Below are positions 1 to 53,806 of a DNA stretch of 64,000 nt, in pieces. A program made the translations under genes and the position numbers. Positions within the stretch are counted from its first letter, which is position 1; the number at the start of each line of letters is the position of its first letter. Where the stretch lies: contig DKFF01000008.1 in assembly GCA_002452795.1 (NCBI GenBank), positions 18,271 through 82,270 on the forward strand. Direction: 5' to 3'. This DNA is from Dehalococcoidia bacterium UBA6803 (GTDB lineage Bacteria; Chloroflexota; Dehalococcoidia; GIF9; AB-539-J10). The notes under the pieces are model-generated. The model saw nothing but the letters and a program-made list of their open reading frames with translations. It was not told the DNA's origin and made no database searches.

Positions 1-2035
1 ACATGCGGGCCAGCGCCACCATGGCCGCCCCTTTATCGCCCAGCAGGTTGATCAGGTGTTCCGGCGAAGGCTCGGCCGTATCCACCATCTTTTTCTCGCG
101 TCCGTCCATCACGCTCCAGTCGGTTTCAGCGCCCCGGCTGATATACAGCCGGGCATACTTGATGCAGCGCGGGCCGATGATGACCGGAATGCCCAGCCGG
201 TTGCAGCCGGTGGCCAGCGCCAGTTCCTCTTCCCCACAGGCGCCCCAGGCCAGCCCACAGGCGCCCACGCGGTTGAGAATGTAGTCGGCCACCACCTCGT
301 AATTGGCTCTCAGCGGCAGGGCCGCGAAGATGCTGGCGATCTTGATGGCCGCGCCTGAGATATGCGCCGCGGCGAAACCGGATCCCATATTAACGATTCC
401 TCCCGCTTCGAAATCGGGCGGGTATTTTTCATAGATTGTCTTGCCCTCGGCGTCCTTTTTGATGGCTGCGGCGATGGCGGAATCCCCCGCCAGCACGACG
501 ATATACTTGCGGCGGGCGAACTCCCCGGCGATATCGGCGATATCATCAGGCGAGCCAGGATAGTTGGAGCCACCCACAATGGCGATCACGCCGGGTATAT
601 TGCCCAGCACCAGGGGTGCGCCCACCTTGCGTATCTCGGTGTCCATAACCGGCCCTCGTCCGGAGCGCATCTTGCCGGACTCCCGGCGGGCGGCGGCCTG
701 CAGCATACGTATGACAGGTATCTTTCCCTTCCCGGCCGATTCACATTTTCCGCAGCCAGTGCACTTTTCGAATACTTCTGAAAACAAATCGAATTCGTGG
801 CGGGCCGCTGCCTCAATCGCATCAGAGATGGGCAGCTTGTTGGGGCAGGCCGCATTACAGGCCCTGGCATCCTTGACCGCGGCCGCCATGGCGGTCACTT
901 CTTCTCTGCTCAGCAGTTGCTTTTTACGTTTAACTGCAAGCTTGATGGCGGCCTCGGCGGCAACGGCCGCAGCCTTGCGGGGATCCAGCACCAGCCGTCC
1001 GGCGCCACGGCCCAGTTCAGATGCTATCTGCCCGGGATCCAGCTCGGAGGCATCCTCCAGACCGTAGACAGCACGGGCGTCAGTGGCAATAAAGGCTGCC
1101 CCCGCGTCGGCAGCTTCTTGCGCAATATCGGTTAATAGATTACCGCCTCCACACATGACCACGTCGGCAATGCCGCAACGCAGGAAAAACAGCAGGCGGG
1201 AGAGCGGCCCGGCTATCCTGGCCCGGGGGCTGTACCTGACCAGGTCATGCGCTACCGGGCCTGCCCCCACCACCTCCACTTTTTCTTCCAGCCCGGCATT
1301 TCTTAAATAATCCACCAGGCAAACTGCAGCGACAGTATCGCATCCCACAATCAGAATAACGGCTTTGGACTGATCAACCGCTGCCCATCCGACATCCACC
1401 AGAGGCGTATCAGCCAGCGAAGCCGGAAAGCCCAGACCCGCGATACAGGCGATCTCGCCTGCTTCCATAGCAACGTGGCTGAGCATCGAGGCCTGCATGA
1501 CCCTCGACTCAAACTCCATATTGGACGTTTCCTGTCCCGTGTTGGCGGCAGCCAGCAGGAAGGCAAGCTGGTGTTCCAGGTAACCCAGCACCGGGGGCAG
1601 GTCGGACAGCTTCTCCGGCTTGAGCCCGATTACGGTGCGGATGTGGGGGGCTTCGATGGCCACCCTGTCGCCCAGCTCTATCTTTGTTTCAGCGCCTTTT
1701 ACATCGATGGCATAGTGAACCATGCGACGTGCGCCGGCGATAGAGCGGGACAATCCTTCGCAGCAAGCCTGCAGAGTAAGACGGGCCTGCATCGTGTTAG
1801 CATCCATGCCGCAGGAACCTTTCCTGCCTTCCGAGAGGTCGCATTCACCGTACGAGCAAAGGTTGCACTTATCGGTCACGGGCACATAAAGAGGAGGCCA
1901 GGTCCTGAGCAGCCTGCGGTCCCAATTCCTAAGGTCGAGCATACCCGGCAGCAGGGTATGCCCTACCGGCTCCCAAGTATCATCAGCGCGGATAAATTCA
2001 CCGGCTTCCCTGTTTTGCCGCTCAGTTTTAGCCAC
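1..2035 (-). CDS. CdhA-like protein (Ni-CODH / acetyl-CoA decarbonylase-synthase alpha-subunit family), N-terminal ~678 codons; C-terminus lies beyond window start
   Basis: Minus-strand frame open from GTG at 2033-2035 (8 nt after AGGAGG that overlaps the cdhD stop) to the window edge; absent from the ORF track only because it has no stop inside the window. By-eye translation gives an N-terminal Cys motif CNLCSYGECDLSEGRKGSCGMD, a ferredoxin-like insert (ACNAACP ... CTGCGKCES) and C-terminal blocks IVGGSNYPG / NMGSGFAAAHISG / NRVGACGLAWGAC that match archaeal CdhA from memory; positions aligned to C-cluster ligands are substituted. Confidence 0.6.
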   Translation of the reverse strand, partial: MAKTERQNREAGEFIRADDTWEPVGHTLLPGMLDLRNWDRRLLRTWPPLYVPVTDKCNLCSYGECDLSEGRKGSCGMDANTMQARLTLQACCEGLSRSIAGARRMVHYAIDVKGAETKIELGDRVAIEAPHIRTVIGLKPEKLSDLPPVLGYLEHQLAFLLAAANTGQETSNMEFESRVMQASMLSHVAMEAGEIACIAGLGFPASLADTPLVDVGWAAVDQSKAVILIVGCDTVAAVCLVDYLRNAGLEEKVEVVGAGPVAHDLVRYSPRARIAGPLSRLLFFLRCGIADVVMCGGGNLLTDIAQEAADAGAAFIATDARAVYGLEDASELDPGQIASELGRGAGRLVLDPRKAAAVAAEAAIKLAVKRKKQLLSREEVTAMAAAVKDARACNAACPNKLPISDAIEAAARHEFDLFSEVFEKCTGCGKCESAGKGKIPVIRMLQAAARRESGKMRSGRGPVMDTEIRKVGAPLVLGNIPGVIAIVGGSNYPGSPDDIADIAGEFARRKYIVVLAGDSAIAAAIKKDAEGKTIYEKYPPDFEAGGIVNMGSGFAAAHISGAAIKIASIFAALPLRANYEVVADYILNRVGACGLAWGACGEEELALATGCNRLGIPVIIGPRCIKYARLYISRGAETDWSVMDGREKKMVDTAEPSPEHLINLLGDKGAAMVALARM

Positions 2036-2047
2036 AGCGCCATCCTC

Positions 2048-2986
2048 CTATAGTTTTCCTTCAATAGCATCCCTGATCAGCCGGCAGTTGTCCGGGTGTC
2101 GCAGCACCAGAATATCTGCTCCGGCCAGCAACAGGCTGATGGCTGTCGTGCTTTCCCATTGCAGGCCCTGCTCTCTATCTGAACGCGCCTGGTTGGTCTT
2201 CCAGCATTCAGCACCGAGGTCGGCAATGACCGGCATCTGCATCGAGGTATCGCCAAAGATCACGCCCACCTGCCGGGTGCGTTCCATGATGGTAAAACTA
2301 TATTCCATACCATAGCCCAGCGCAGAACTGAGCGGATCGATGACTATTTTCTCGGGAGGCAGGCGCTTGAGCAGTTTAACGTTCAGCTCCTTCTCCAGGT
2401 TAATATCGATGGGCGTCTGGGCAATGATACAGTGGCCGTTTTCCGCCACTGCTCCGGCAATGGCTTCGTAATTCTCCTTGACCGCGGGGCCGAGCAGCAA
2501 ATTGGCGCCCTTGCAGGCGGCTGCCACGGCAGACAGCACCTCGATATCCTTTTTGTCGTCACCGCTGCCATAGACTATCAACGGCCGGTCGATGCTGTCG
2601 CTGATCTTTTTGACCAGGGCAGCGGCCTCATCAGCGGGTTTATTGGCGCCTTGCGGATCAGTGCCGTCCAGATGCAGGCAGACCAGGTCGGCGCCCAATT
2701 CAATACATTCATGTGCCCATTTCACCGGGTCATTAAGCACATCCCTGAACGGCGCCCTAATCCATTCCGCCCATCCGGCAGCCCCGTTGTCGTCTATTTG
2801 CAGCGCCACTACCTGGCGGTTGACTGCCTGCCCTTCAAAATAATGGAGCGGGAGTATGTTCTGGCCGCCGATCTTCAGCGCCTTGCTGCCGCTGCCGAGG
2901 ACCACCTCTTTAACCTTACCGGTATATGTTTCCAGCGGAACTTTATAATCCATCGATATCTCCCGGCTAAGACTCCAGCCAGGCAT
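2048..2986 (-). CDS. cdhD: acetyl-CoA decarbonylase/synthase delta subunit (corrinoid Fe-S protein small subunit, CdhD/AcsD)
   Basis: 312 aa; near-colinear similarity to Moorella AcsD recalled (HYFEGQ..NRPV, DPxxWA, LDGxDPxGAN, GYGxEYSFxIMERxR). Confidence 0.85.
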   Translation of the reverse strand: MPGWSLSREISMDYKVPLETYTGKVKEVVLGSGSKALKIGGQNILPLHYFEGQAVNRQVVALQIDDNGAAGWAEWIRAPFRDVLNDPVKWAHECIELGADLVCLHLDGTDPQGANKPADEAAALVKKISDSIDRPLIVYGSGDDKKDIEVLSAVAAACKGANLLLGPAVKENYEAIAGAVAENGHCIIAQTPIDINLEKELNVKLLKRLPPEKIVIDPLSSALGYGMEYSFTIMERTRQVGVIFGDTSMQMPVIADLGAECWKTNQARSDREQGLQWESTTAISLLLAGADILVLRHPDNCRLIRDAIEGKL

Positions 2987-3845
2987 TTGAATAGAGGGCC
3001 TCGCCCATCAGCACCATGGCTGTCTTAACATAATTGCATTCCTGCTGCGATAGAGAGGCAATGTCCACCGGCTCCCCATCCATCACCTTGTAGATAAGCT
3101 CCCTGACTTTGACCAGGCCGCCCTTGTTCAACTGGACAAGTTCCGGGTCAAGCACATCGGCAATGGCCGAGTACAAGCCGTTTTTCTCCAGCATGACCAT
3201 ATATGTTCGGTTGAGTGTTCCCCTCAGTTGGCCTGGCGTCCCGTTGGAGACATTGGAAAGGCCCACCACCGATTTCACTCCGGGCAGCAGGTCACCCAGA
3301 ATCTTGATGAACTCCAACGCCTCGCGCGCCTGCTTCTGGTCAGCGCTGACCGGCAGGATGATGGGATCGACCCAGATGTCTTCATTCTGGATGCCCAGCC
3401 CGTTGGCATAAGCCACGGTTTCCATAACACTCTCTACCCGTGAATCCACATCTGGCGGGCAGCCCTGGTCAGTAATGACTGAAATAATAACCTGCGTATT
3501 ATATTTTACCGCCAGCGGCAGCATGATTTCCCTGCTTTCAGCCTTGCCTGAAGCTGAATTCAACAGCGGACGTTTTTTGCAAAGTTTTAACCCGGCCTCC
3601 ATGGCCAGAGGGTTCATGGTATCGAGTGAAATGGGGAGGTCGGTTACCGCCTGGACCGTATTTACCAGCCATGAAGCGACTTCTTCGGGGTCTTTGCGGG
3701 CCGGGCCCAGGTTGAGGTCGAGCAGGTCGGCGCCGGCCGCGGCCTGTGCCCGGGCCAACTCCTGGATATAAGCAGGTTTACGTTCCCTGACCGCTTCACT
3801 GACAGCCTTTGAAATAATGTGGATGTTCTCGCCGATTAATATCAT
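2967..3845 (-). CDS. acsE: methyltetrahydrofolate:corrinoid/iron-sulfur protein methyltransferase (AcsE-type MeTr, pterin-binding domain)
   Basis: 292 aa; MILIGENIH..DLNxGPA..LSLDTxN..GLSNVS motif series as in Moorella AcsE; overlaps cdhD by 20 nt. Confidence 0.85.
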   Translation of the reverse strand: MILIGENIHIISKAVSEAVRERKPAYIQELARAQAAAGADLLDLNLGPARKDPEEVASWLVNTVQAVTDLPISLDTMNPLAMEAGLKLCKKRPLLNSASGKAESREIMLPLAVKYNTQVIISVITDQGCPPDVDSRVESVMETVAYANGLGIQNEDIWVDPIILPVSADQKQAREALEFIKILGDLLPGVKSVVGLSNVSNGTPGQLRGTLNRTYMVMLEKNGLYSAIADVLDPELVQLNKGGLVKVRELIYKVMDGEPVDIASLSQQECNYVKTAMVLMGEALYSNAWLES

Positions 3846-3946
3846 ATGTATAACAGAATTATATTTTCGGGCATTCTAACATCCTCAGCGCATCACGGGC
3901 AAGGAAAAGCGTTATACGGGTCCTCCAAATAGCGTATAATCTAATA

Positions 3947-4414
3947 ATGCCTGATAAAAAAAGGGTCATTATTTACTGCGACGGCGCCTGCTCGGGCAAC
4001 CAGTACCGCACCAACACCGGTGGATGGGGGGCCATACTTAAATACGGAGATAAGATTAAGGAAGTCTATGGCGGAGAGCCCAATACCACCAACCAGCGCA
4101 TGGAGCTGACGGCCTGCATCAGGGCGCTGGAACAGATTAAATCCGGCGGATACGACATCGATATATACACTGACAGCGCCTACTTGGCCAACTGTATGCT
4201 GCAGAAATGGTATCTGAAATGGCAAAAAAACGGCTGGAAAAACTCCAAAAAGGAACCCGTGGAAAACCGCGACCTTTGGGAGCAGTTGATTACGTATCTC
4301 CCTTTACATAATATTGCTTTCCATAAGGTGGACGCCCATTGCGGTGATGAACTTAACGAGAGGGCCGACGAGCTGGCCAGACTGGGCATTGCCGGAGTAA
4401 AAAAGGCTTTCTGA
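3947..4414 (+). CDS. rnhA: ribonuclease HI
   Basis: 155 aa; IYCDGACSGNQ ... TNQRMEL ... TDSxY ... HKVDAHCGDELNERADELA. Confidence 0.9.
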   Translation: MPDKKRVIIYCDGACSGNQYRTNTGGWGAILKYGDKIKEVYGGEPNTTNQRMELTACIRALEQIKSGGYDIDIYTDSAYLANCMLQKWYLKWQKNGWKNSKKEPVENRDLWEQLITYLPLHNIAFHKVDAHCGDELNERADELARLGIAGVKKAF

Positions 4415-4501
4415 CCGACGTGTCAACTCAAATAAAAATATTACCGAAAAAGACCGCGGATCCCATTATTAGTTCAATTAATAACCTGACAAGACACTAG
4501 T

Positions 4502-4735
4502 TTAAGCCTTAACCCGTTTGCGCAGCCGTTCCAGGATCCACATGCGGGCCAGCGTGGTCGGTCCTACACCAAGATCCCTGGCCTCTTTCCTGATTTCCTC
4601 CCACTTGTCCGCAGAGAGGCGGACGGGAATGACCTTGTTCAGCGGTTTCTTCACTTCTATTTGGACAACCTCGTCGCTTTCGTCCCAGGCATTACCCTGC
4701 TCGATTTCTTTAATCGCTTTATCTATATCGGCCAT
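4502..4735 (-). CDS. brnA: BrnA-type antitoxin (ribbon-helix-helix)
   Basis: Starts at MADIDKAIKEIEQG (ATG 4733-4735), 1 nt after brnT stop; small RHH-like protein ending ...LARMWILERLRKRVKA. Confidence 0.6.
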   Translation of the reverse strand: MADIDKAIKEIEQGNAWDESDEVVQIEVKKPLNKVIPVRLSADKWEEIRKEARDLGVGPTTLARMWILERLRKRVKA

Positions 4736-4736
4736 A

Positions 4737-5021
4737 TTACTTGCCTCCAGTTGACTTCTTGTAAAGCTGCCTCTCACTATCGGTCATCTCCCTGGCAGTG
4801 GCCACTTTCCAGCTGCCGCCTCCCAGGTTAACCAGCACCACCAGGATATATCTCCCGGCTGCCATCTGGCAGAAGACCTTATACAGCCCTTCTCTGCCTT
4901 TCCTGACATGCCGTTTCTCCGATAGACAGGCCTCCTCGACTTCATTAAAAGTAACGCTGTGCTTGCTCTCGATCTTATCCAGTATATGGTCGTCAATCTC
5001 TAAAGACTCGATGTAAAGCAC
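4737..5021 (-). CDS. brnT: BrnT-type toxin (DUF497 / RelE-fold ribonuclease)
   Basis: 94 aa; SKHSVTFNEVEEACLS ... RYILVVLVNLGGGSWKVATAREMTDSERQLYKK matches the BrnT pattern; toxin-first order typical of brnTA. Confidence 0.6.
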   Translation of the reverse strand: MLYIESLEIDDHILDKIESKHSVTFNEVEEACLSEKRHVRKGREGLYKVFCQMAAGRYILVVLVNLGGGSWKVATAREMTDSERQLYKKSTGGK

Positions 5022-5048
5022 CGAATTTTCCCTCTTTTCACCTCAAAT

Positions 5049-5067
5049 TGTATACGGTCTGTATACA
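5049..5067. promoter_or_regulatory. palindromic operator-like site TGTATAC-ggtc-TGTATACA upstream of brnT
   Basis: Two copies of self-complementary TGTATACA half-sites 28-46 nt upstream of the brnT start, where TA autoregulatory operators usually lie. Confidence 0.35.
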
Positions 5068-5089
5068 CTTGTCAAGGCAAAGCCATTAA

Positions 5090-5658
5090 TTTTTACCCCT
5101 GGAGAGAGAATATTCTAGTTTCCAGTCCGTGAAAGCTGATTACGACATAGAGGGACTGCAAGACAAGCCTAAACCTGGTCGTCCTCGCCGGATTGGGCAG
5201 GATAAAATCGCCGAGATTGTGGCCACCACCATGGCGCCATCACACTATTGGCAGCGCTAAACATAGCTACTGGGGAAGTTATCGGGGAGCGCCATCCCAG
5301 ACATCGTCACCAGGAGTTTCTCAAGTTTCTCAGACGACTGGACAAGGATGTGCCAGATAAGCAGTTGCATCTGATTCTGGATAACTACGGCGCCCATAAA
5401 CACGAGAAAGTGCAGAAACGGCTTAGGCGACATAAGCGTTTTCATCTTCATTTTACTCCTGCTGGAGCATCCTGGATGAATATGGTGGAAATCTGGTTTG
5501 GCATACTGACCAACCAGGCGATTCGCAGGGGCAGCTTTGATAGCGTTGGCCACCTCATCGAGGCAATAAAGGCCTTCGTTAGCCGGTGGAATGAAGGAGC
5601 AAAACCCTTTGTATGTATAAAAACGGCCGAACAAATCCTGGCAAAGGCGGTTAGATAA
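5090..5658 (+). pseudogene. IS630-family transposase remnant (N-terminal HTH segment, internal deletion/frameshift, C-terminal DDE segment)
   Basis: Frame A ...GLQDKPKPGRPRRIGQDKIAEIVATT... stops at 5258-5260; frame B (5248..5658) LAALNIATGEVIGERHPRHRHQEFLKFL ... ILDNYGAHK ... FTPAGASWMNMVEIWF = IS630 DDE core; about 70 codons between the two blocks are missing. Confidence 0.6.
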
Positions 5659-5676
5659 TGAAAGCTATTTACTGGA

Positions 5677-5976
5677 CTAGATACTAATTATAAGGCGTGG
5701 AATATAATCACCGGCCGCTACCGCTCCGCAATGATGCGCCAGGTCAGTCTCAAAGTTGCCCGGCGCCGTAGTCTGCCAGCTTAACCGCTCAATTGGCACA
5801 TACCGTAAGAGACGGTTGGGCGGTTGGGGCTTGCGTCGGGTTAGCTTCAGGGTATCCTGTCCCATTTCAGTCAGTAATTGGCTACGTTCCTTTCTCCCCG
5901 ATTGGACATACCTCGACCGAACCAGTTTCAGGTATTTTCTTCGTTCGTTTATGTTCATCCTTCCGTTGCTCGGCAT
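5677..5976 (-). pseudogene. truncated transposase N-terminal fragment (family unassigned)
   Basis: 99 aa MNINERRKYLKLVRSRYVQSGRKERSQLLTEM... resembles transposase N-terminal helper regions; too short to carry a catalytic domain; lies next to the IS630 remnant. Confidence 0.3.
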
Positions 5977-5986
5977 GATCCTCCCT

Positions 5987-6051
5987 CAGTAACATTTTTA
6001 TCTGAGTGAATCATACCCTACTCGGTAACATTTTAGATGAGTGAATACGAC
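5987..6051. repeat. pair of ~24-bp imperfect direct repeats (GTAACATTTT-nnn-TGAGTGAAT)
   Basis: 5987-6016 and 6023-6051, immediately upstream (on the minus strand) of the transposase fragment; candidate IS-end or transposase-binding repeats. Confidence 0.3.
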
Positions 6052-6207
6052 CAAGTGCATTTTAGCCCCTGATATGCTATACTTATAATGAATTTGCAAG
6101 TCCTAGTATTTTTCCTGCAAAAAAATACTATATATTGTGATATTAATTTCAAAATTATCGCCTCAAAAGAGGTCTCTGACAGGCGAAATTCCTGGAAGTG
6201 ATAAATC

Positions 6208-8127
6208 ATGACCCCTGAACCAAATCATAATGGCATCAATGGAGACTATAGCGCACAAAACATCCGCGTGCTGGACGGACTCGAAGCTGTCCGCCTACGG
6301 CCCGGCATGTATATCGGCGATACGGGCAAAGACGGCCTGCACCATCTGGTCTATGAAATAGTCTACAACAGCATCGATGAGGCCATGGCCGGCTACTGCA
6401 ACCGTATACAGGTCATCATCAATGCAGATAACTCCGTAACCGTGACCGATAACGGACGCGGCATCCCGGTGGACATCCATCCGGAAAAGGGCGTCTCGGC
6501 CCTGGAACTGGTCATGACCACGCTGCACGCCGGCGGTAAATTCGGCGACGGCGCTTACAGCGTTTCCTCCGGTCTGCACGGCGTCGGCGCCTCGGTCGTC
6601 AATGCCCTTTCCAAATGGATGAGGTCCGAGATCAAGCGTGACGGTAAAATATGGCGCCAGGAATACAAGGTCGGTGTGCAACAGGGCGAGGTCAAGGCCA
6701 TAGGTAAAACTACCGAGACCGGGACTACCCAGACCTTCATGGCCGATGACGAAATTTTCGGTGAGATCGATTATGATTTCAACGTGTTGGCCGAACGCCT
6801 CAGGGAGCTGGCCTTCCTCAACAAGGGCACCGAGATCAGCTTGCGGGATGAAAGGTCAGATAAGGAGGTAACCTATTTCTTCGAGGGCGGCATCGCCAGC
6901 CTGATACGCCGTATCAACAAAAACAGGCAGGTACTGGATAAACCGATCTATATCTCCGGAAGCGTCAACAGCACGGCAGTTGAAGTGGCCATCCAGTACA
7001 ACGACGGCTATTCGGAAAACGTCACTGCTTTCGCCAACTGTGTCAACACCAAGGAGGGCGGCACCCACCTGACCGGTTTCAGGGCTGCTCTGACCCGCGT
7101 GTTAAACGATTATGCACGCAAGAACAAATTCCTCAAGGATAGCGATCCCAACCTGTCCGGCGATGATGTCCGCGACGGGCTGACGGCAGTGGTCAGCGTC
7201 AAGGTGGGCTCACCCCAGTTCGAGGGCCAGACCAAGGCCAAGCTGGGCAATCCAGAGGTTAAAGGCCAGGTAGAAACGATCACCAACGACGGGCTGAACG
7301 AGTACCTGGAAAAACATCCTGAGGAAGGCAAGTCGATTATCGACAAATGCCTGCTGGCCGCCAAAGCCAGGGAAGCGGCGCGCAAAGCGCGCGACCTTAT
7401 ACTCAAGAAAACCGGACTTGAGTTCGGCACGTTGCCGGGCAAGCTGGCCGACTGTGCCAGCAACAACCCCAGGGACTGCGAGTTATACCTGGTAGAAGGC
7501 GATTCAGCCGGCGGATCGGCCAAGCAGGGCCGCGACCGCAATTTCCAGGCCATCCTCCCGCTGCGCGGCAAGATCCTGAACGTGGAAAAGGCTGCCAAGG
7601 ATAAGATCTTCGACCATGAAGAAATACGCGCTCTGATCACTGCGCTGGGTACGGGAATTGGCGAAGCCTATGATTACTCCAAGCTGCGCTACCACCAGAT
7701 CATAATTATGACCGATGCGGATGTTGATGGCGCACATATCCGCACGCTGCTTTTAACTTTCTTCTACCGCAACATGGCCGACCTGATCCAGAACGGCCAC
7801 CTGTTCATCGCCCAACCACCCCTCTACCGTCTGGCCGCCGGCAAACAGCAGTACTGGGTATACTCGGACGCCGAGAAGGATGCCAAGCTCAGCGCCATGA
7901 AGAGCAGCAAGGTGGACGTTCAGCGTTACAAGGGCCTTGGCGAGATGAGCCCGGAGCAGTTGTGGGATACAACGATGAACCCGGCCACAAGAACGTTGCT
8001 CAAAGTGCAGGTCGACGATGCTATGAAGGCCGATGAGATCTTCCATATACTGATGGGCAATGAAGTGCCGCCGCGCAAGTCATTTATCCAGGCCCATGCC
8101 CGCTCCGTTAAAAATCTGGATATATAG
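6208..8127 (+). CDS. gyrB: DNA gyrase subunit B
   Basis: 639 aa; GHKD ATPase, TOPRIM (EGDSAGGS) and C-terminal motifs all present. Confidence 0.95.
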   Translation: MTPEPNHNGINGDYSAQNIRVLDGLEAVRLRPGMYIGDTGKDGLHHLVYEIVYNSIDEAMAGYCNRIQVIINADNSVTVTDNGRGIPVDIHPEKGVSALELVMTTLHAGGKFGDGAYSVSSGLHGVGASVVNALSKWMRSEIKRDGKIWRQEYKVGVQQGEVKAIGKTTETGTTQTFMADDEIFGEIDYDFNVLAERLRELAFLNKGTEISLRDERSDKEVTYFFEGGIASLIRRINKNRQVLDKPIYISGSVNSTAVEVAIQYNDGYSENVTAFANCVNTKEGGTHLTGFRAALTRVLNDYARKNKFLKDSDPNLSGDDVRDGLTAVVSVKVGSPQFEGQTKAKLGNPEVKGQVETITNDGLNEYLEKHPEEGKSIIDKCLLAAKAREAARKARDLILKKTGLEFGTLPGKLADCASNNPRDCELYLVEGDSAGGSAKQGRDRNFQAILPLRGKILNVEKAAKDKIFDHEEIRALITALGTGIGEAYDYSKLRYHQIIIMTDADVDGAHIRTLLLTFFYRNMADLIQNGHLFIAQPPLYRLAAGKQQYWVYSDAEKDAKLSAMKSSKVDVQRYKGLGEMSPEQLWDTTMNPATRTLLKVQVDDAMKADEIFHILMGNEVPPRKSFIQAHARSVKNLDI

Positions 8128-42639: not shown

Positions 42640-43779
42640 TTAAGTTTTTATCCCGACGGTGATTTCTGTGCCTTTGCCCGGTTGCGATTTTATGGAGAAG
42701 GTGCCGCCGAGCAAGCGGGCTCGCTCCTGCATGCCGATCAGTCCCAGCTTGCCTTTGCTGGCAAATCCACCTGCCACTTCAGGCACCTTGAATCCTCTGC
42801 CGTTGTCGGCAATGGTCAAGTTGACTTTATCGGGAGCAAACTCGACCTTAACCAGTACCTCCGTTGCCATGGCATGTTTCCTGACGTTGCGCAGTGCTTC
42901 CTGGGCGATGCGGAATAAGGCCAGTTCGATCTCCGGTGGCAGGCGATAACTAGAACCGGTTGTCTCAAAACGTGTATTAATCTCTTTTTCTTCATTGTGA
43001 AATTTGTTTGTTAGGTTTACCAAAATTGGCGTTAGTCCCAGTTGGTCCAAGTCACCAGGGCGAAGTTCTTGTGCAAAGAAGCGAGCTTTTTTTGCTGTAT
43101 TGTTGATATTGCTTTGGAGTTGTTCCAATTGGGAAAAGATTTTCTCCGGTGCAAACTCTCTGTTTCCGATTAGCATGTCGATCTTCAAAGATATGGTTGT
43201 CAATTCTTGGAGGAAGGTGTCGTGTAACTCGCGAGCAATATACTTCCTTTCCCCCTCTTGGGCGCGGGTGATTTCTGCGAGGTAGAATTGCATATTCTCC
43301 TGCCTTTGTCGCTGCTCGGTTATATCTCTGGCTGTAGTCATAATGCCTATTATTTGCTCATTTTTCTTTATCAAAGAGGGTGCGGACTCGGTGATCATTT
43401 TTTCGCCGTTCTTTCTGAAGATCTCATATTCGTAGTAGCATTGCTTAATGCACCGATCCCTAAGCCATTTCTGTTGCTCTTTCATGAGGGATTCAAAGCT
43501 TTTCGGGGAGAGAAGGCGTGATACGTGTAGCCCGACCAGTTCTTCGGCCGTATTGTAGCCGAAGAGATCTACTGCTCGTTGGTTGACTGCAAGAATCATT
43601 CCCTCAAGGGTGCGAATGAAAATGACATAATTGGTTTGAGTGAAAATGCTTGAGTAGAGAGCCTTCGTAGTCGTGAGGAGCTTGCTCTTTCTTTGTAGTT
43701 CTTTCTGGAGGTGAAATATTTCTACAAGAGCCCTCTTTTTGCTGATTCTCCTGTTGGGTTTGAAAAAGTTAGTCCTCAT
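42640..43779 (-). CDS. cytoplasmic PAS-domain sensor histidine kinase (HisKA_3 / NarX-type)
   Basis: 379 aa; no TM segments; PAS region, H-box ARELHDTFLQ, HATPase_c with DNGRGF and G-box. Confidence 0.8.
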   Translation of the reverse strand: MRTNFFKPNRRISKKRALVEIFHLQKELQRKSKLLTTTKALYSSIFTQTNYVIFIRTLEGMILAVNQRAVDLFGYNTAEELVGLHVSRLLSPKSFESLMKEQQKWLRDRCIKQCYYEYEIFRKNGEKMITESAPSLIKKNEQIIGIMTTARDITEQRQRQENMQFYLAEITRAQEGERKYIARELHDTFLQELTTISLKIDMLIGNREFAPEKIFSQLEQLQSNINNTAKKARFFAQELRPGDLDQLGLTPILVNLTNKFHNEEKEINTRFETTGSSYRLPPEIELALFRIAQEALRNVRKHAMATEVLVKVEFAPDKVNLTIADNGRGFKVPEVAGGFASKGKLGLIGMQERARLLGGTFSIKSQPGKGTEITVGIKT

Positions 43780-44449
43780 GTTCGGTTACTTTAAAAATAT
43801 CGTCGAGTGCCAGCCAATTTTCTTTTAAGGCGTAAAGCACAGCCTCGGTGCGAGATCCGACTTTTAATTTTTTGAAAGTGTTTACCATGTGAGTTTGAAC
43901 AGTGCGTTCACTGATCACAAACTCCTCGGCGATTTCCCTGTTGGTTAACCCGCCACCTGCCAGTTTAAGTATTTCTAACTCGCGTGGAGACAATATCACG
44001 GATTTTTGTCCGGTTTTGGTAGCATTAACCACTAACTGATGTACGATTTGGCTGGCGGATTGAAAAGAAAACACCGCTTCTCCTGCATACACCATGCGGA
44101 TGGCATCGGTTAGCTTATTTATAGGAGAATTCTTTAACAAATATCCTGCTACTCCCGCCTCTAAAGAAGCTGAAATATATGACGCGTAGTTATAAGCGGT
44201 GAGTATGATGATAGCTGTCCTCGGACAAAATATTTTAATCTGCCGGGCGGCTTCGATGCCGCCAACGACAGGCATAGAAACATCGAGGATGACCACATCT
44301 GGCAACAGCTCCGTTGTTAAGCTGATTGCTTCTTCGGCAGTGGTTGTCTTTGCTACTATAAGTAAGTCCGCCTCTTTTTCTAGAAGAAGAGACAGTCCTT
44401 CTAAGACCAAAGTGTGGTCATCCGCTAAGAGAACTTTAATTTTCTCCAT
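43769..44449 (-). CDS. NarL/LuxR-family response regulator
   Basis: Start MEKIKVLLADDH (ATG 44447-44449, AAGGGG RBS); receiver domain plus LuxR HTH; overlaps the kinase gene by 11 nt. Confidence 0.8.
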   Translation of the reverse strand: MEKIKVLLADDHTLVLEGLSLLLEKEADLLIVAKTTTAEEAISLTTELLPDVVILDVSMPVVGGIEAARQIKIFCPRTAIIILTAYNYASYISASLEAGVAGYLLKNSPINKLTDAIRMVYAGEAVFSFQSASQIVHQLVVNATKTGQKSVILSPRELEILKLAGGGLTNREIAEEFVISERTVQTHMVNTFKKLKVGSRTEAVLYALKENWLALDDIFKVTEHED

Positions 44450-45015
44450 AATCAAGCCCCTTTTTGCTGAAGAATATGAACAAACTTTGCGGGAGGTTAA
44501 GTCTATTTCCATTGTAACATATGTTGTTTGAAGGTTTGCCTTCGAGTCGTTTGTGACGTCCAATTGTTAATTTATGCTTTGTATAGGGCAAGGTAGTGCC
44601 AGAAGGGGAGGGTGTTAATGCTACTGCTTGTTCAGGTTATGCGTGGACACAAGAGTTGATAGAGGCAGTGACCGAATGTGAGGTAGGGGAGGCCTTGGGC
44701 GAAGCATATGCTTCTCATGGCATGATATCGGTTGGTATATTATCATGGGGGATGCCAATCTGGCTGTGTTTAATTTATCTGTATTTGTTATGAGGTTGTA
44801 TGTATCGTGGTAAGTAGTTTTCTGGAGGTGGAAATACGTAGTTTGTCTGATATGAAGATTGTATTTGAGAGGATATACTTAAGTTGCTAATAAGAGGTGG
44901 TATCTGCGGGCGGTTATTTGGGTTATAAGAGATTTGGGCCCGGAGAGGAAACTGAAGATGTGTTGTGCATTTGAGTCGAGAGAATTTTAACGTAGAGAAG
45001 TTAAAGGAGGTAAAA

Positions 45016-47628
45016 ATGGCAACAGCAGTGGAAAAAATAATGAAAATGAACGAGAAAGAGGAAGGGAAGGAGTATTTACTGGACCCGGAGGAGGCGGGGG
45101 TAAAGCTGGATACCCCAGGTGAACCTACAAGTAAGGCATGGGCAGTTGTTACTCCGGAGATGTGGAAATTCAGGTTCTCAGTCGCAGACAAGATACAAGT
45201 TGATGAGCCGGATTATTTCGCTGATAAGGATGCCTATACAGATATGGGGCCGTTCATGGCAATGAAGGAAGCCTGTGACGAGAATCCGGAGGCTACAGTT
45301 GCGCGTATAGTTGCTGTGGCATTCGCAAAATCTCTTGACCGTCAACGTCTGCCAATTAGGCCATACGAGATGGTCATTGGCTTGTATTCCAGTGATGAGC
45401 ACGGCATGCCGGGAGATCCGCAAAAGCAGAACTGGCAGCAATTGGTGGCGAACTTTAAGAACGCGCCGGAAAGGATGATGTACTGGAAAGGTGACGAAAA
45501 AGTCAGGCTTTCCAAACAGGAGATGGATGAGCTCACAGCAAAGATAGGCAATAAATTTAATGCAGTGTCAAGAGTTGTTGGCAAACTGACGCCTGAAGAG
45601 CAGCACCTGTACTTTTGTCCTGAAGCTCCCGGGAGATACTTTGAAGCGTTTGGCTCTGTACAGCGTGCCAGTGCCGACCATGGCTGGTATATGAGGCTGG
45701 GCTGGAGAAAACTGGTAGAGATGAAGAAGGAGAAGCTGGGGGAGTACGAGAAGGAATTTGAGCGTGTCAAATTAGCTGAGCCACTTGACTATCACAAGAC
45801 TGATGAGATACAGGACAGGATTGATAACGCTAAAGCTAGCATCCTGGTTGGTGAGGCGGTCATCAGGTGGATAAAGAGGTGGGCAGAGGCAGCGAGGAAA
45901 GCTGCCCCTCAGATGCCCGACGAGAAGTCAAAATGGATAGCCGAACAGGCAGCAGCGAATTGTGATTGGGTCGCGGAGAACGCGCCCCGCACCTTCTGGG
46001 AAGCCGTGCAGATGTTCTGGCTTAGCTATTGTGTTTTTCGTGGTTTAGAATCCTGCCACCCTGGTGCATTCAAGCCGGATGATCTTTTATGGGAATGGTA
46101 TGAACGCGACGTGGTAAAAGAGAAAACGCTGGACAGGACTACAGCGGGCGAGATAATAGCTTGTTGGGCAGCTAAGTACCACGAAACGGCCGGATTTGGG
46201 CCTGCGAGGTTTGGTGGCTTGGGCAAGTCAGCTCAGGGAACCAGAGACTATACGGTCTGGACGATTGGTGGGCAGGATGGGCATGGTTGTGACGCCACGA
46301 ATGAGCTTACTCGTTTAATCCTGGATGTCTGGGACGGATACAGACTTCATTTTCCCGACCTTAAATTCAGATGGCACCCTGCGACTAAAAGGGACGATTT
46401 TAGAAGAGTCGTTGAGGTAGCCAGAACAGGATTGGGGCTTCCCTCTCTGCGGAACGATCCAATGGCCATTGAGACTCTTTTGAGCCAGTATCCGGGAGAG
46501 TTGACCCTGGAGCAGGCGAGACAGTGGGGAATCGTAGGCTGCAATACGCCGGGATGTATTGTTGATTCCAAAGGGCCTGTCAGGCGGGAGGTTTCTTATG
46601 CGGACATTGAGAAGGCGCCGGAATTCGCGCTCTTCAATGGCAGAGACCCGGAGCCGGGGTTCGAGTGGGTTAAGTCGATAGAGACCGGAGACCCCACCAA
46701 GTTTAAGGATTTTGAGGAGTTTTACCAGGCCTGGCTCAGGCAGTATGAATGGTTCGTGACCATGGAACTCAGGTACCGAAACAGGTTTCTTGAGGAACTG
46801 GAAAAGACAAACAAAATGCCGTTTGTAAGCCTTCTGTATAAATGCTGCATGGAATCAGGGCTGGATGCGCTTCAAGACCCTGCCATAGCAAGATTTAGTT
46901 TTCAGAGCATAGTCGGCTGGGTGGATTCGATAGATAGCCTCATAGGGGTGAAATACTGGGTTTACGATAAGAAGAAGTACACTATGGAGCAACTCCTGAA
47001 GGCATTGAAAGCTGACTGGGTAGGCTATGAGGACATGAGGCGGGATTTCCGGAACGCGCCCAAGTTCGGGAACGATGATGACTATGCCGATGAAATAATG
47101 GCAAGGGCAACCGACGACGTCTTTATAGTGCACAAGACAAAGACTCTGGACAGGAGAGGTTACCCGGTCTACCCCAATCAGCTTCCCGTAAGCCGTATGT
47201 TTCAGTCTGCTCCCATGGTAGGGGCATTGCCTAACGGGAGAAAGCGCGGTGACCAGCTGTGTGATGGAGGGATTAACCCTCATGCCGATTTTGATAAAGC
47301 CGGGCTCTGGGGAAGGATGAGGTCAGCCCTAAAGGTTGATCAAGGTAAAGCCAGGGCGTACATTTACAATCAGAGGGTTGATTATTCCTCGGTGGCAGGT
47401 GAGGTTGGTCTGGCTAAGTTTGCGGATTATTGCTGGGACAGCCTTGCGCAGGGGCAGACTCAGATGCAGTTCAACTTTGTCTCGACTGAAGTGTTGCGGG
47501 ATGCGCAGAAGAGTCCGGAGAAATATCCCTATCTTACGGTAAGGGTATCCGGCTATAATGCCTTCTTTACCGGGCTGCCTGTCTTTATGCAGAATGCGGT
47601 GGCAAGCCGCGTAGAGCAGAAATTGTAG
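45016..47628 (+). CDS. glycyl radical enzyme, uncharacterized subfamily (870 aa)
   Basis: ATG at 45016 with AAGGAGG RBS; C-terminal glycyl-radical motif RVSGYNAFF; Cys loop VGCNTPGCIV; PFL-fold conserved blocks throughout. Confidence 0.85.
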   Translation: MATAVEKIMKMNEKEEGKEYLLDPEEAGVKLDTPGEPTSKAWAVVTPEMWKFRFSVADKIQVDEPDYFADKDAYTDMGPFMAMKEACDENPEATVARIVAVAFAKSLDRQRLPIRPYEMVIGLYSSDEHGMPGDPQKQNWQQLVANFKNAPERMMYWKGDEKVRLSKQEMDELTAKIGNKFNAVSRVVGKLTPEEQHLYFCPEAPGRYFEAFGSVQRASADHGWYMRLGWRKLVEMKKEKLGEYEKEFERVKLAEPLDYHKTDEIQDRIDNAKASILVGEAVIRWIKRWAEAARKAAPQMPDEKSKWIAEQAAANCDWVAENAPRTFWEAVQMFWLSYCVFRGLESCHPGAFKPDDLLWEWYERDVVKEKTLDRTTAGEIIACWAAKYHETAGFGPARFGGLGKSAQGTRDYTVWTIGGQDGHGCDATNELTRLILDVWDGYRLHFPDLKFRWHPATKRDDFRRVVEVARTGLGLPSLRNDPMAIETLLSQYPGELTLEQARQWGIVGCNTPGCIVDSKGPVRREVSYADIEKAPEFALFNGRDPEPGFEWVKSIETGDPTKFKDFEEFYQAWLRQYEWFVTMELRYRNRFLEELEKTNKMPFVSLLYKCCMESGLDALQDPAIARFSFQSIVGWVDSIDSLIGVKYWVYDKKKYTMEQLLKALKADWVGYEDMRRDFRNAPKFGNDDDYADEIMARATDDVFIVHKTKTLDRRGYPVYPNQLPVSRMFQSAPMVGALPNGRKRGDQLCDGGINPHADFDKAGLWGRMRSALKVDQGKARAYIYNQRVDYSSVAGEVGLAKFADYCWDSLAQGQTQMQFNFVSTEVLRDAQKSPEKYPYLTVRVSGYNAFFTGLPVFMQNAVASRVEQKL

Positions 47629-47672
47629 CATCTCGCAGAGATAAGCGAGGGAGACTACCGCAACGAGAGTTG

Positions 47673-47712
47673 GCCGGTGTGGCGATCTCCGGTCGGGGGT
47701 TGCCACACCGGC
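47673..47712 (+). promoter_or_regulatory. intercistronic stem-loop between the GRE and its activase (GGCCGGTGTGGC ... GCCACACCGGC)
   Basis: 11-12-bp near-perfect inverted repeat with 18-nt loop; no U-tract; AAGGAGG RBS for the activase follows. Confidence 0.3.
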
Positions 47713-47755
47713 TCTGTGTAGCGGTGAGTATTTATGTAAAGGAGGTTGTCTGCTT

Positions 47756-48682
47756 ATGTCGATTGAGGCAATAATTAAGACTGTAGATGAGCATGCGGTT
47801 CATGATGGCCCGGGGGCGAGGGCGCTTGCTTTCATAAAGGGTTGCAACTTGCATTGTAAATGGTGTCAGAATCCGGAGCTCATAAAGTTTGAGCCCCAGA
47901 TATGGTTCCATAAAGCGTTTTGCAAAGGATGTGGTGTATGCGAAGCGGCATGTCCTGTTAAGGCTATTGATTTAAATGCAGACGCCATGCACAGAATTGA
48001 TAGAGAGAAGTGCCTGGGAATTGAATGCAGCAAGTGTGTTCGGGTATGTTCGTATAATGCATTGCAGACGGTTGGTGTTAAGATCACTGCCGAGGAACTC
48101 TGGAGGTGGCTGGCGAAGTATAAAAGTTTTTATCAGGGTTCAGGGGGAGGGATAACGCTCAGTGGCGGAGATCCTTTACATTCGCCGGATTTCTCGGCTG
48201 AGGTACTTGAGCTTTGTAAAAGGGACAATATACATACGGCTATTGAAACGAGTTTATATGCCAGTTACGACAATTTGTGGAAGGTGGCGAGGCACTGCGA
48301 CCTTATTCTGTGTGATATTAAGCACATGGACAGCAAAAAGCATAAAGAGGGGACGGGTGTATCCAACGAACTGATTCTTGAGAATCTTCAGCGGCTTAAT
48401 GCGGATTTTCCTGGCGAAATCGTGGTGCGGGTGCCACTGATTCCCGGATACAATGACGACGAAGAGAACATTCGCCAAACAGCGGAGTTTCTTTCTCCAC
48501 TGGAACGGGTAAAAGGGATAGACCTGTTGCCCTTCAATAATTTCCCCGTGACGAAATTCGAGGCGCTTGGTATAGACTGGGAGTATACGAACGTTCTCAG
48601 TCAAACGGACGAGCAGTTGAACAAGCTTCATGAAATAGTGAAACCTTATAAAGCTCATTGCACGGTAGGGGGGATGTGGTAG
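47756..48682 (+). CDS. glycyl radical enzyme activating enzyme (radical SAM, with two auxiliary ferredoxin-like [4Fe-4S] motifs)
   Basis: 308 aa; CNLHCKWC radical SAM motif; CKGCGVCEAACP and CLGIECSKCVRVC insert typical of non-PflA-type activases. Confidence 0.85.
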   Translation: MSIEAIIKTVDEHAVHDGPGARALAFIKGCNLHCKWCQNPELIKFEPQIWFHKAFCKGCGVCEAACPVKAIDLNADAMHRIDREKCLGIECSKCVRVCSYNALQTVGVKITAEELWRWLAKYKSFYQGSGGGITLSGGDPLHSPDFSAEVLELCKRDNIHTAIETSLYASYDNLWKVARHCDLILCDIKHMDSKKHKEGTGVSNELILENLQRLNADFPGEIVVRVPLIPGYNDDEENIRQTAEFLSPLERVKGIDLLPFNNFPVTKFEALGIDWEYTNVLSQTDEQLNKLHEIVKPYKAHCTVGGMW

Positions 48683-51233: not shown

Positions 51234-52421
51234 TTATAGTCCAGCGCTGGCTCTTAACGCTGCAACTCTATCTGTTTTCTCCCAGGGCAAATCAAGGTCT
51301 TCTCTGCCGAAGTGTCCATAAGCAGCGGTCTGCCTGTAAATGGGACGGCGCAGGTTCAATGTCCTGATGATTGCCTCGGGACGCAGATCGAAATGTTCAT
51401 TGATCAATCCAAGTATAGCCTCATCTGCTATTTTCCCTGTGTGGAAAGTTTCGACTGAGAGAGAAAGAGGGTGAGCTTTGCCAATGGTATAGGCAACCCG
51501 TATCTCGATGCGGTCAGCAATGCCTGCCGCCACTATGTTCTTGGCGATATACCTGGACATATAAGCGGCGCTACGGTCAACTTTCGTGGGATCTTTGCCG
51601 GAAAAAGCCCCGCCGCCATGATGGGCGGCGCTTCCATAAGAGTCAACGATGATTTTACGCCCGGTGAAGCCCGTATCGCTGACAGGCCCACCGATGACAA
51701 ATTGCCCGGTGCTGTTGATGAAAAATTCAGAACTGGAGTCCAGTAAATCAGCGGGGATGGCCTCTCTGATCACCTGCTTTATCAGGTCGTTTTCGATGGC
51801 GGCGTGATTTATTCCGGGGTCGTGTTGGGCGGCAATCACGACACGGGCAACTCTTTTAGGCTTGCCGTAGCAATACTCAATGGTTACCTGGGATTTGCCG
51901 TCAGGGCGCAGATATGGAACAATCCCCTCTTTTCTCACCAGGGCTAACCTTCGGCACAGTTTGTGTGCCAGGGAGATGGACAGGGGCATAAATTCCGGTG
52001 TGACGTTGTGCGCATAACCGACCATCATGCCCTGGTCGCCGGCACCTGTTTTGCTCAATTCGTCTTCCTGTTGACCGCCTTTCTTTTCCAGTGATTGGCT
52101 CACTCCCATATCTATGTCGGAAGATTGCTTCTTTAATGAAACGATTACGCCAACGGTACGATAGTCATAACCGTATTCTGGATTGGTGTAACCAGCATCC
52201 TTGATTACCTGTTTTACCACATCGGGGATATCCACATAACAGTTGCAGGAGATTTCTCCCAGGACTATCACCATGCCCAGTGTCACAGCTGTCTCGCAGG
52301 CGACGCGGGCGTAGGGGTCTTTTTCTAGCATGGCGTCCAGAATGGCGTCGGATATCTGGTCACAAAGCTTATCAGGATGTCCTTCAGTGACTGATTCCGA
52401 CGTGATTAAGCATGACTTCAT
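51234..52421 (-). CDS. metK: S-adenosylmethionine synthetase
   Basis: Start [18 protein letters not shown] (ATG 52419-52421); GHPDK and GAGDQG motifs. Confidence 0.9.
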
Positions 52422-52483
52422 TTCTTTAAAAGCGTCTTTGCAAGGTCCCGACATGATCATCCTCCTTGATTTATTATTTTATG

Positions 52484-53806
<1,323 letters not shown>

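Follow-up and report, generated by a model that had tools for sequence, protein, structure and literature searches.

A single-subunit glycyl radical enzyme of a Dehalococcoidia bacterium from a rare lineage branching beside the X-succinate synthases

Results

The gene and its radical motifs

The 64,000-nucleotide stretch analysed here (the window) is part of contig DKFF01000008.1 of Dehalococcoidia bacterium UBA6803 (assembly GCA_002452795.1, positions 18,271 to 82,270 of the forward strand), and it encodes a glycyl radical enzyme (GRE) beside a radical-installing activase. The GRE consists of one subunit and belongs to a rare lineage beside the X-succinate synthases (XSSs, fumarate hydroalkylases); in the source organism it stands as an orphan module with only a two-component system next to it. 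Its residues are compared below with those of the alpha chains of benzylsuccinate synthase (BSS) and (1-methylalkyl)succinate synthase (MASS), and X denotes the partner that is joined to fumarate in a 2-substituted succinate. The features of the gene are:

45016-47628, + strand: GRE, 870 aa, XSS-like, single subunit (translation, Pfam, Shine-Dalgarno sequence, AlphaFold2 model and fold matches)
46534-46557, + strand: Cys loop VGCNTPGC, residues 507-514, with C509 (46540-46542) as the predicted thiyl-radical cysteine (aligns with MASS C477 and BSS C493)
46585-46587, + strand: Arg524 (Cys+15), predicted to bind a carboxylate of fumarate or of a succinyl group (aligns with BSS R508 and MASS R492)
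47194-47196, + strand: Arg727, where BSS has Leu711 (a toluene contact), predicted to anchor an anionic X (the alignment has no gaps here and is anchored on either side)
47542-47568, + strand: glycyl radical motif RVSGYNAFF, residues 843-851, with G846 (47551-47553) as the predicted radical site (aligns with BSS G829 and is invariant in the family)

The open reading frame (ORF) at 45016-47628 runs through 870 codons free of stops, with AAAGGAGGTAAAA as a Shine-Dalgarno sequence 5' of the ATG at 45016 and AAAGGAGG likewise ahead of that ATG. A GTG at 44965 would give an enzyme of 887 aa, the form held in public collections (P0001), and is the less likely start. An initial annotation, made from the sequence alone, had recognised a GRE by RVSGYNAFF, and Pfam, motif, structural model and fold search agree on this identity; with E-values of 4.6e-97 for the PFL-like domain (PF02901) and 8e-18 for Gly_radical (PF01228), the assignment is not a matter of chance.

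The same annotation had located the thiyl loop at VGCNTPGC, and HMMER alignments to solved structures place C509 in the catalytic cysteine column of the MASS (C477) and BSS (C493) alpha chains, so that this is the true thiyl loop and the catalytic loop does not lie elsewhere. In an alignment of 34 family members G508, C509, P512, R524, F629 (BSS W613) and G846 are all invariant. The loop has neither the Glu of CxE-type GREs, as it reads C-N-T, nor an adjacent pair of cysteines. The emphasis that had been put on the second cysteine did not hold up, since C514 is present in only part of the closest subclade and is replaced by V, S, P or T elsewhere in the family; a catalytic role for a position so poorly conserved is unlikely, and C514 was rejected as a PFL-like partner cysteine for the same reason.

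Placement of the family

The best solved relatives of the GRE by HMMER are the alpha chains of MASS (9o8u, E 4e-99) and BSS (4pkc, E 8e-81), followed among PDB entries by HypD, IslA, glycerol dehydratase and CutC and, over the C-terminal part only (E 1e-9), by pyruvate formate-lyase (PFL). BLAST identity is 33% to MasD and 31% to TutD, which are 40% identical to each other. The AlphaFold2 model (pLDDT 88, pTM 0.91) gave the same two alpha chains as top Foldseek matches, with TMq values of 0.84-0.85 versus 0.78-0.80 for eliminases. None of the NCBIfam equivalog models is reached: the top one, HypD, reaches 316 of the 1100 bits required, the broad PFL2/glycerol-dehydratase subfamily model 284 of 678, and the HypD, HpsG, CutC, IAD and HPAD models all stay far under their cut-offs. 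Membership of the eliminases, decarboxylases or PFLs was rejected on the motif together with these curated scores, and the view that the enzyme is neither a CxE eliminase nor a Cys-Cys formate-lyase was thus borne out by a C-N-T loop, the missing Cys-Cys and models below cut-off.

The family comprises about 70 clusters (at 90% identity) with at least 44% identity to the query. In a library clustered at 50% identity the family is represented by two full-length sequences (1469 and 977 bits) and a partial one (810 bits); beyond the family come a sister clade at 708 bits and then a continuum from 553 bits down. In a neighbour-joining tree (588 columns, 200 bootstraps) the family is monophyletic and sister to a clade with the loop signature 'GCISPAP...RRD', each with 100% bootstrap support. 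The CxE GREs are separated (100%) from a single clade that takes in every GRE combining CxxP with Arg at Cys+15: the family and its sister, BSS, MAS/ASS and further unnamed lineages. Within this clade the family lies outside the BSS/NMS/IBS and ASS/MAS clades as a separate deep branch. Arg is absent from the six commonest residues at the Cys+15 column in 49 CxE-type GREs taken from a library of 1.84 billion proteins. The XSS likeness first proposed from the loop is therefore supported by the best sequence and fold matches (MASS and BSS) and by the CxxP/Arg+15 clade, and the enzyme belongs to no characterised GRE family, as no curated cut-off is reached and its branch in the tree is its own.

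These comparisons bear on the idea of a pyruvate or 2-ketoacid formate-lyase type of enzyme that would use C509 together with C514, for which we see only the slightest chance. Two cysteines do fall within six residues in the query, and one source names a relative 'pyruvate-formate lyase', but the adjacent Cys-Cys is missing, C514 is not conserved, TIGR01255 scores 42 bits against a cut-off of 994, and the PFL matches in the PDB are confined to the C-terminal part as given above.

Our literature searches found no paper on this GRE family, nor any characterised GRE linked to itaconate, methylsuccinate, tricarballylate, TRAP transport or fumarase. A June 2026 review recognises formate-lyases, decarboxylases, XSSs (all of them multisubunit hydrocarbon activators), 1,2-eliminases, isomerases and aminoacyl radical enzymes, and notes that whole GRE clades are still uncharacterised and that new classes are still emerging (PMC13450708); none of the classes in it matches this family.

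The active site compared with BSS and MASS

The structure of MASS showed that the oxyanion hole of the Cys loop and an Arg (BSS R508, MASS R492) are the two fumarate contacts common to BSS and MASS, the remaining contacts differing between the two enzymes (PMC12358834). The role of Arg508 in BSS has been described, and I384 and L711 are among the strongest toluene contacts there (PMC4848970). Pocket residues of the query were assigned by sequence alignment to BSS and MASS only, and correspond as follows:

BSS I384 (toluene contact): S405 here
BSS F385 (which we take to belong to the toluene pocket): A406 here
BSS L391 (contact with bound benzylsuccinate): Y412 here
BSS W613 (fumarate contact): F629 here
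BSS N615 (fumarate contact): S631 here
BSS Q707 (fumarate contact): L723 here
BSS V709 (contact with bound benzylsuccinate): V725 here, kept
BSS L711 (toluene contact): R727 here

The hydrophobic hydrocarbon pocket of the XSSs (I384, F385, L391 and L711 of BSS) is thus not kept in the alignment, its places being taken by S405, A406, Y412 and R727. Position 727 is Arg in every member with at least 66% identity to the query and L, W, M, F, H or Y in remoter clades, and the X-pocket positions 405, 406, 412, 527, 631, 633 and 727 differ among subclades. A constant fumarate site next to a varying X pocket suggests a bisubstrate enzyme with a fixed site for a C4-dicarboxylate and a diversifying site for its partner. 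Because the pocket of the query's subclade combines Arg727 with small or polar residues, X is probably anionic in that subclade.

The activase, the two-component system and the surroundings of the module

The GRE is followed by its activase and preceded by a divergently transcribed two-component system:

42640-43779, - strand: PAS sensor histidine kinase (HisKA_3), divergent from the GRE (Pfam)
43769-44563, - strand: NarL/LuxR-type response regulator (Pfam Response_reg and GerE), called shorter, at 226 aa, in the public record (L089)
44564-45015, + strand: region of 452 nt upstream of the GRE, a likely promoter or leader (its last ~170 nt are conserved with locus L001)
47756-48682, + strand: GRE activating enzyme of the radical S-adenosylmethionine (SAM) type with two ferredoxin-like auxiliary cluster motifs (TIGR02494, Cys motifs)

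The activase passes TIGR02494 (314 bits, cut-off 174). Its radical-SAM motif, C30x3Cx2C, is followed by two further four-Cys motifs, C56x2Cx2Cx3C and C86x4Cx2Cx3C, which agrees with the two auxiliary clusters that had been attributed to it. With 208 bits against a cut-off of 496 for TIGR04003 it is not of the BssD type.

The whole kinase-regulator-GRE-activase module (42640-48682 in the window) is also present in L001, a metagenome-assembled genome (MAG) of Dehalococcoidia, at positions 1103-6950 and with a GRE that is 91% identical. The flanks differ: a ribosomal protein operon upstream and phosphoglucose isomerase, phosphoglucomutase, SAM synthetase and S-adenosylhomocysteine (SAH) hydrolase downstream in the window, and SurE, MFS and ThyX genes in L001. 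That the two share the module and not the genes around it suggests that the four genes move as a unit. Base composition gave no clear signal of horizontal transfer, only the two-component genes being about 6% lower in G+C content. The RpoA of the source organism is 54-59% identical to the nearest named Chloroflexi/Dehalococcoidia proteins, which makes the organism a deep Chloroflexota/Dehalococcoidia lineage. Some 2.5 kb downstream from the activase, the opposite strand carries the SAM synthetase and SAH hydrolase genes (51234-53788, - strand), which are probably coincidental housekeeping genes.

Upstream of the GRE, positions 44845-45015 of the window are well conserved with about 3130-3285 of L001 in a pairwise alignment of these two sequences only; examples of the conserved stretches are TTTGGGCCCGG.GAGGA and AATTTTAA.GTAGA.AAGTTAAAGGAGG. 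Rfam gave no match to a riboswitch or other known RNA in the region upstream of the GRE, and the conserved ~170 nt may serve either as a leader RNA or as a promoter/operator on which the adjacent regulator acts. In the interval separating regulator and GRE, a 65-aa ORF (44596-44793, + strand) also figures as a gene in the public annotation. As no Pfam hit is recorded for it and the other family loci do not conserve it, it is unlikely to be a genuine small subunit.

The initial annotation held that Dehalococcoides-type organisms normally lack GREs. This fails at the level of the class: Dehalococcoidia MAGs L001, L018, L021 and L060 carry GREs, and since cold-seep MAGs of the class with assA and bssA/nmsA-like genes have been reported (bioRxiv 10.1101/2020.02.02.928283), a GRE in Dehalococcoidia is not surprising in itself.

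Accessory subunits

In the literature, beta and gamma subunits count as a feature that fumarate-adding enzymes alone possess (PMC6776118; PMC13450708). ORFs of 30-130 aa within 2.5 kb of the GRE were collected and clustered across about 35 family loci, and no conserved small-subunit ORF was found beside the GRE, the recurrent small ORFs being shadows inside the GRE and activase genes. The window itself has no small-subunit genes and no bbs- or mas-type genes, and tblastn found no homologues of TRAP, MmgE/PrpD, fumarase, malic enzyme, IclR, PNPOx or MFS proteins in its 64 kb, in agreement with the original remark that neither small subunits nor substrate-pathway genes are nearby.

A canonical hydrocarbon-activating fumarate-adding enzyme, of the assA/bssA/nmsA-like kind under which metagenome studies usually label such genes, is for these reasons and others a very unlikely identity. 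It would explain why MASS and BSS are the nearest solved relatives, why one JGI annotation of a relative reads 'benzylsuccinate synthase', why hydrocarbon-rich samples are the source of many family sequences (MAGs from cold seeps, and records that carry the name hydrocarbon metagenome), and why position 727 is hydrophobic in the remoter clades of the family. However, genes for beta, gamma and delta subunits were not found in the ~35 loci, Arg727 and Ser405 occupy the positions of toluene contacts (L711 and I384), the activase misses the BssD cut-off by a wide margin, the tree puts the family outside the BSS and ASS clades, and its gene contexts are mostly those of organic-acid transport and C4 metabolism.

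Gene contexts of relatives

The neighbourhoods of relatives are more informative than the window. The main arrangements (handle of the locus, identity of its GRE to the query, order of genes) are:

L090, 78%: DctQMP - GRE - activase - MmgE/PrpD - class I fumarase alpha/beta
L091/L176, 78%: IclR - PNPOx - GRE - DctPQM - MmgE/PrpD - activase - malic enzyme
L170, 77%: IclR - activase - DUF4125 - GRE - DctPQM - MmgE/PrpD
L173, 77%: AAA/CbbQ - VWA - activase - DUF4125 - GRE - PNPOx - class I fumarase alpha/beta - malic enzyme
L092, 76%: GRE - DctPQM - fumarase (class I)
L094, 71%: IclR - GRE - activase - DctPQM
L084, 67%: AMP ligase - GRE - activase - MmgE/PrpD - MFS
L177, 66%: IclR - GRE - activase - DctQMP - PNPOx - fumarase (class I)
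L175, 66%: beta-oxidation genes, two AMP ligases, B12 mutase - GRE - activase
L081 (Synergistaceae), 57%: DctPQM - GRE - activase - FumC - malic enzyme - MFS - GntR

FumC of the Synergistaceae locus passes TIGR00979 (774 bits, cut-off 665) and the fumarase of L090 passes NF004885, so that two fumarase families without homology to each other were recruited. Among the TRAP binding proteins pairwise identity is only 21-54%; against the PDB they reach E 1e-18 at best, too distant for the ligand to be read from them. Because both the fumarases and the TRAP binding proteins are so different, recruitment appears to have been repeated and independent, which points to a recurrent coupling of the GRE to carboxylate uptake and to fumarate and malate metabolism.

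The MmgE/PrpD proteins linked to the GRE are orthologous (44-59% identical to each other) and match iminodisuccinate (IDS) epimerase with E 1e-55 to 1e-65 and PrpD with E 1e-10. They retain H85, D88, H99, H150, K198 and K266 and the second-base Tyr145. A 2025 study found that the MmgE/PrpD family binds a C4 1,4-dicarboxylate backbone and that its IDS-epimerase/methylsuccinate-isomerase type acts on free acids, epimerising 2-substituted succinates at C2 (PMC12290011). The initial annotation had offered no substrate; the conserved Arg at the fumarate-binding position, the Arg in the X pocket and the operons of relatives narrow the choice, the operons pointing to C4-dicarboxylate/2-substituted-succinate metabolism.

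It is against this background that a chemistry unrelated to fumarate has to be judged, in which an isomerase, decarboxylase or eliminase would act on some other imported C4-C6 acid, Arg524 would merely bind a substrate carboxylate, and fumarase and malic enzyme would act further downstream. That no family cut-off is reached, that identity to XSSs is only 31-33%, that several fumarate contacts of BSS are replaced and that new GRE classes are still being found (PMC13450708) all leave some room for it. We nevertheless hold it to be improbable: the loop lacks the CxE Glu of eliminases, isomerases and decarboxylases, the CxxP and Arg+15 signature is specific to the XSS-like clade with its 100% bootstrap, and fumarase was recruited twice from families that are not homologous.

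Several further observations concern other neighbours and other clades. In a clade at 54% identity (L105 and L108), two CoA transferases and a TRAP system precede the GRE, which is followed by the large and small subunits of MCM, a biotin carrier, OAD beta, a carboxyltransferase and acyl-CoA dehydrogenases, a set that resembles one for succinate-to-propionate conversion or for alkylsuccinate processing. On contigs of the Geobacteraceae/Desulfobacteraceae type (L003, L006, L007, L087 and L098), GREs of 49-55% identity occur as two or three tandem paralogues; these remoter tandem enzymes are present in several copies per MAG (CAYYRK, DAOWOF) and have hydrophobic X-pocket residues. In L006, L098 and L099 the remoter GREs adjoin a VWA-like protein and a protein with CxxCH motifs, both judged by eye.

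DUF4125 (PF13526) adjoins the activase in L088, L170 and L173, and a MoxR/CbbQ-type AAA ATPase (AAA_5) is encoded in L088 and in L173, there followed by a VWA protein (loci covered: L088/L104 and L170-L174). The DUF4125, AAA ATPase and VWA proteins may be maturation factors of the GRE; BssE of bss operons is presumably a similar ATPase. A small PNPOx-like protein of 113-140 aa (split-barrel, probably flavin-binding) stands beside the GRE in the close relatives L091, L095, L173/L174 and L177/L178, and may be an electron donor to the activase.

Discussion

Fumarate and an organic acid, not a hydrocarbon, are probably the two partners whose bond the GRE forms or cleaves. What we infer about fumarate or succinyl binding, the anionic character of X, the direction of the reaction and its role in a Dehalococcoidia-like organism can be assembled into a mechanism. 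The activase would install the radical on Gly846, from where it would pass to Cys509 as a thiyl radical. Fumarate, or the succinyl part of the substrate, would be held as a C4-dicarboxylate unit, in the manner of BSS and MASS, by Arg524 together with the amides of the Cys loop, and the partner X would lie in the second, variable pocket with Arg727, where it would probably carry a carboxylate or another anionic group. Fumarate and X-H could then be interconverted with a 2-substituted succinate by radical addition or by beta-scission; in the direction of a lyase, abstraction of hydrogen from the succinyl CH2 would precede the beta-scission. In close relatives, an imported X-succinate might be turned by the epimerase into the isomer that the GRE accepts and be split into fumarate and X-H, the fumarate passing through malate to pyruvate.

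For the subclade of the query we tentatively favour the cleavage direction, that is, XSS-type chemistry put to the physiological use of splitting an X-succinate into fumarate and an anionic X-H, and would give it a little less than an even chance. It is favoured because the operons that combine transporter, epimerase, GRE, fumarase and malic enzyme, sometimes with an MFS exporter, form a complete route to pyruvate from a 2-substituted succinate that is imported as a mixture of stereoisomers, and because the recurrent operon has no enzyme that would consume the adduct. The first reverse step also has a precedent, since BSS abstracts hydrogen again from its own product benzylsuccinate, as seen by H/D exchange (PMC13573558). 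The bolder proposal, that the enzyme is the first glycyl radical 'X-succinate lyase' and runs XSS chemistry backwards on an imported 2-substituted succinate, is conceivable and at present doubtful.

A number of points weigh against cleavage and the fumarate site on which it depends. Retro-hydroalkylation is expected, as an estimate from general thermochemistry, to be endergonic under standard conditions. The BSS fumarate contacts Q707 and N615 are changed (to L723 and S631), and the N-terminal pocket residues E189, Y197 and S199 of BSS were left out of the mapping, the alignment being unreliable there. In L175 and L105 the GRE adjoins genes for CoA ligases or transferases, B12 mutases, carboxyltransferase and either beta-oxidation (L175) or acyl-CoA dehydrogenase (L105), and a set of ligase or transferase, mutase, carboxyltransferase and beta-oxidation enzymes is the classic downstream route of forward fumarate addition. 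The fumarase and malic enzyme of L173 come without a transporter and would also fit a supply of fumarate for a synthase. Finally, the window has none of the informative neighbours.

Some of these points speak for a forward, fumarate-adding synthase acting on a polar or anionic acid. The TRAP system would import the acid X-H, whose addition to fumarate would yield a tricarboxylate; fumarase and malic enzyme would make the fumarate from pyruvate, and MmgE/PrpD would epimerise the product ahead of CoA activation, mutase rearrangement and beta-oxidation. The active-site evidence serves this reading as well as it serves cleavage, and all characterised XSSs run forward (PMC13450708). The two AMP ligases, MCM-like mutase with B12 subunit and beta-oxidation genes of L175 (66%), like the CoA transferases, MCM, carboxyltransferase and acyl-CoA dehydrogenases of L105 (54%), resemble the processing of alkylsuccinates, and the transporter is absent from L173 where fumarase and malic enzyme are present. 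Yet the operons with TRAP, epimerase, fumarase and malic enzyme contain nothing that would consume the product, and a malic enzyme followed by an MFS transporter would read more simply as catabolism and export. Both the forward reaction and the roles that it assigns to the neighbouring enzymes seem to us rather unlikely, and cleavage remains the reading that we carry forward.

XSSs are the only enzymes known to hydroalkylate fumarate; so far they have been met only as multisubunit hydrocarbon activators, and activating them in vitro is difficult (PMC13450708). If real, a relative made of one subunit and with a polar pocket would extend fumarate hydroalkylation to organic acids, and such an enzyme could be a simpler scaffold for biocatalytic formation of C-C bonds. 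If cleavage is the true direction, this would be a new class of GRE reaction and a new anaerobic route feeding fumarate into central metabolism; a lyase acting together with a free-acid epimerase, fumarase and malic enzyme would constitute a previously unknown anaerobic catabolism of substituted succinates, and would mean that XSS-type chemistry needs no accessory subunits. There is also a practical side, as members of this family, those of Dehalococcoidia among them, may enter surveys as assA/bssA-like markers of anaerobic hydrocarbon degradation, a label against which the evidence presented here argues. The enzyme is worth experimental follow-up.

Among known systems, the GRE eliminases and isomerases (HypD, CutC, glycerol and propanediol dehydratases, IslA, HpsG and YbiW) have the same 10-stranded barrel (TMq 0.78-0.80) and share with the query a single-subunit architecture and an activase with two auxiliary clusters, and their models give the query its highest partial NCBIfam scores. 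However, they use the CxE Glu on the Cys loop (PMC13450708), where the query has C-N-T, and the query misses their curated cut-offs (1000-1100 bits) widely and belongs to a different clade. The MmgE/PrpD proteins of the related operons keep all the listed catalytic and carboxylate-binding residues of IDS epimerase and (S)-(R)-methylsuccinate isomerase, but the latter is linked to itaconate or CoA-transferase genes, unlike the GRE-linked proteins, which are themselves absent from the window. The BSS alpha chain (BssA/TutD; 4pkc, 5bwe) shares RVSGY with the query, as well as C493 (C509 here), R508 (R524), V709 (V725) and G829 (G846), with a TMq of 0.85, whereas BssB, BssC and the bbs genes have no counterpart beside the query GRE and its activase is not BssD-like. 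From the MASS alpha chain (MasD/AssA, 9o8u) the query differs in that MASS needs beta, gamma and delta subunits, none of which is encoded beside the query gene, in its glycyl motif (RVAGY in MASS, RVSGY here), in Leu723 at the place of MASS E690, in its loop (CMSPN in MASS and LCMSPG in BSS, GCNTPG here) and in having Arg727 in a pocket that is hydrophobic in MASS, but the two enzymes agree in the length of the Cys loop, in C-x-S/T-P, in the Arg at Cys+15 and in the C-terminal glycyl radical domain, and their folds match with a TMq of 0.84.

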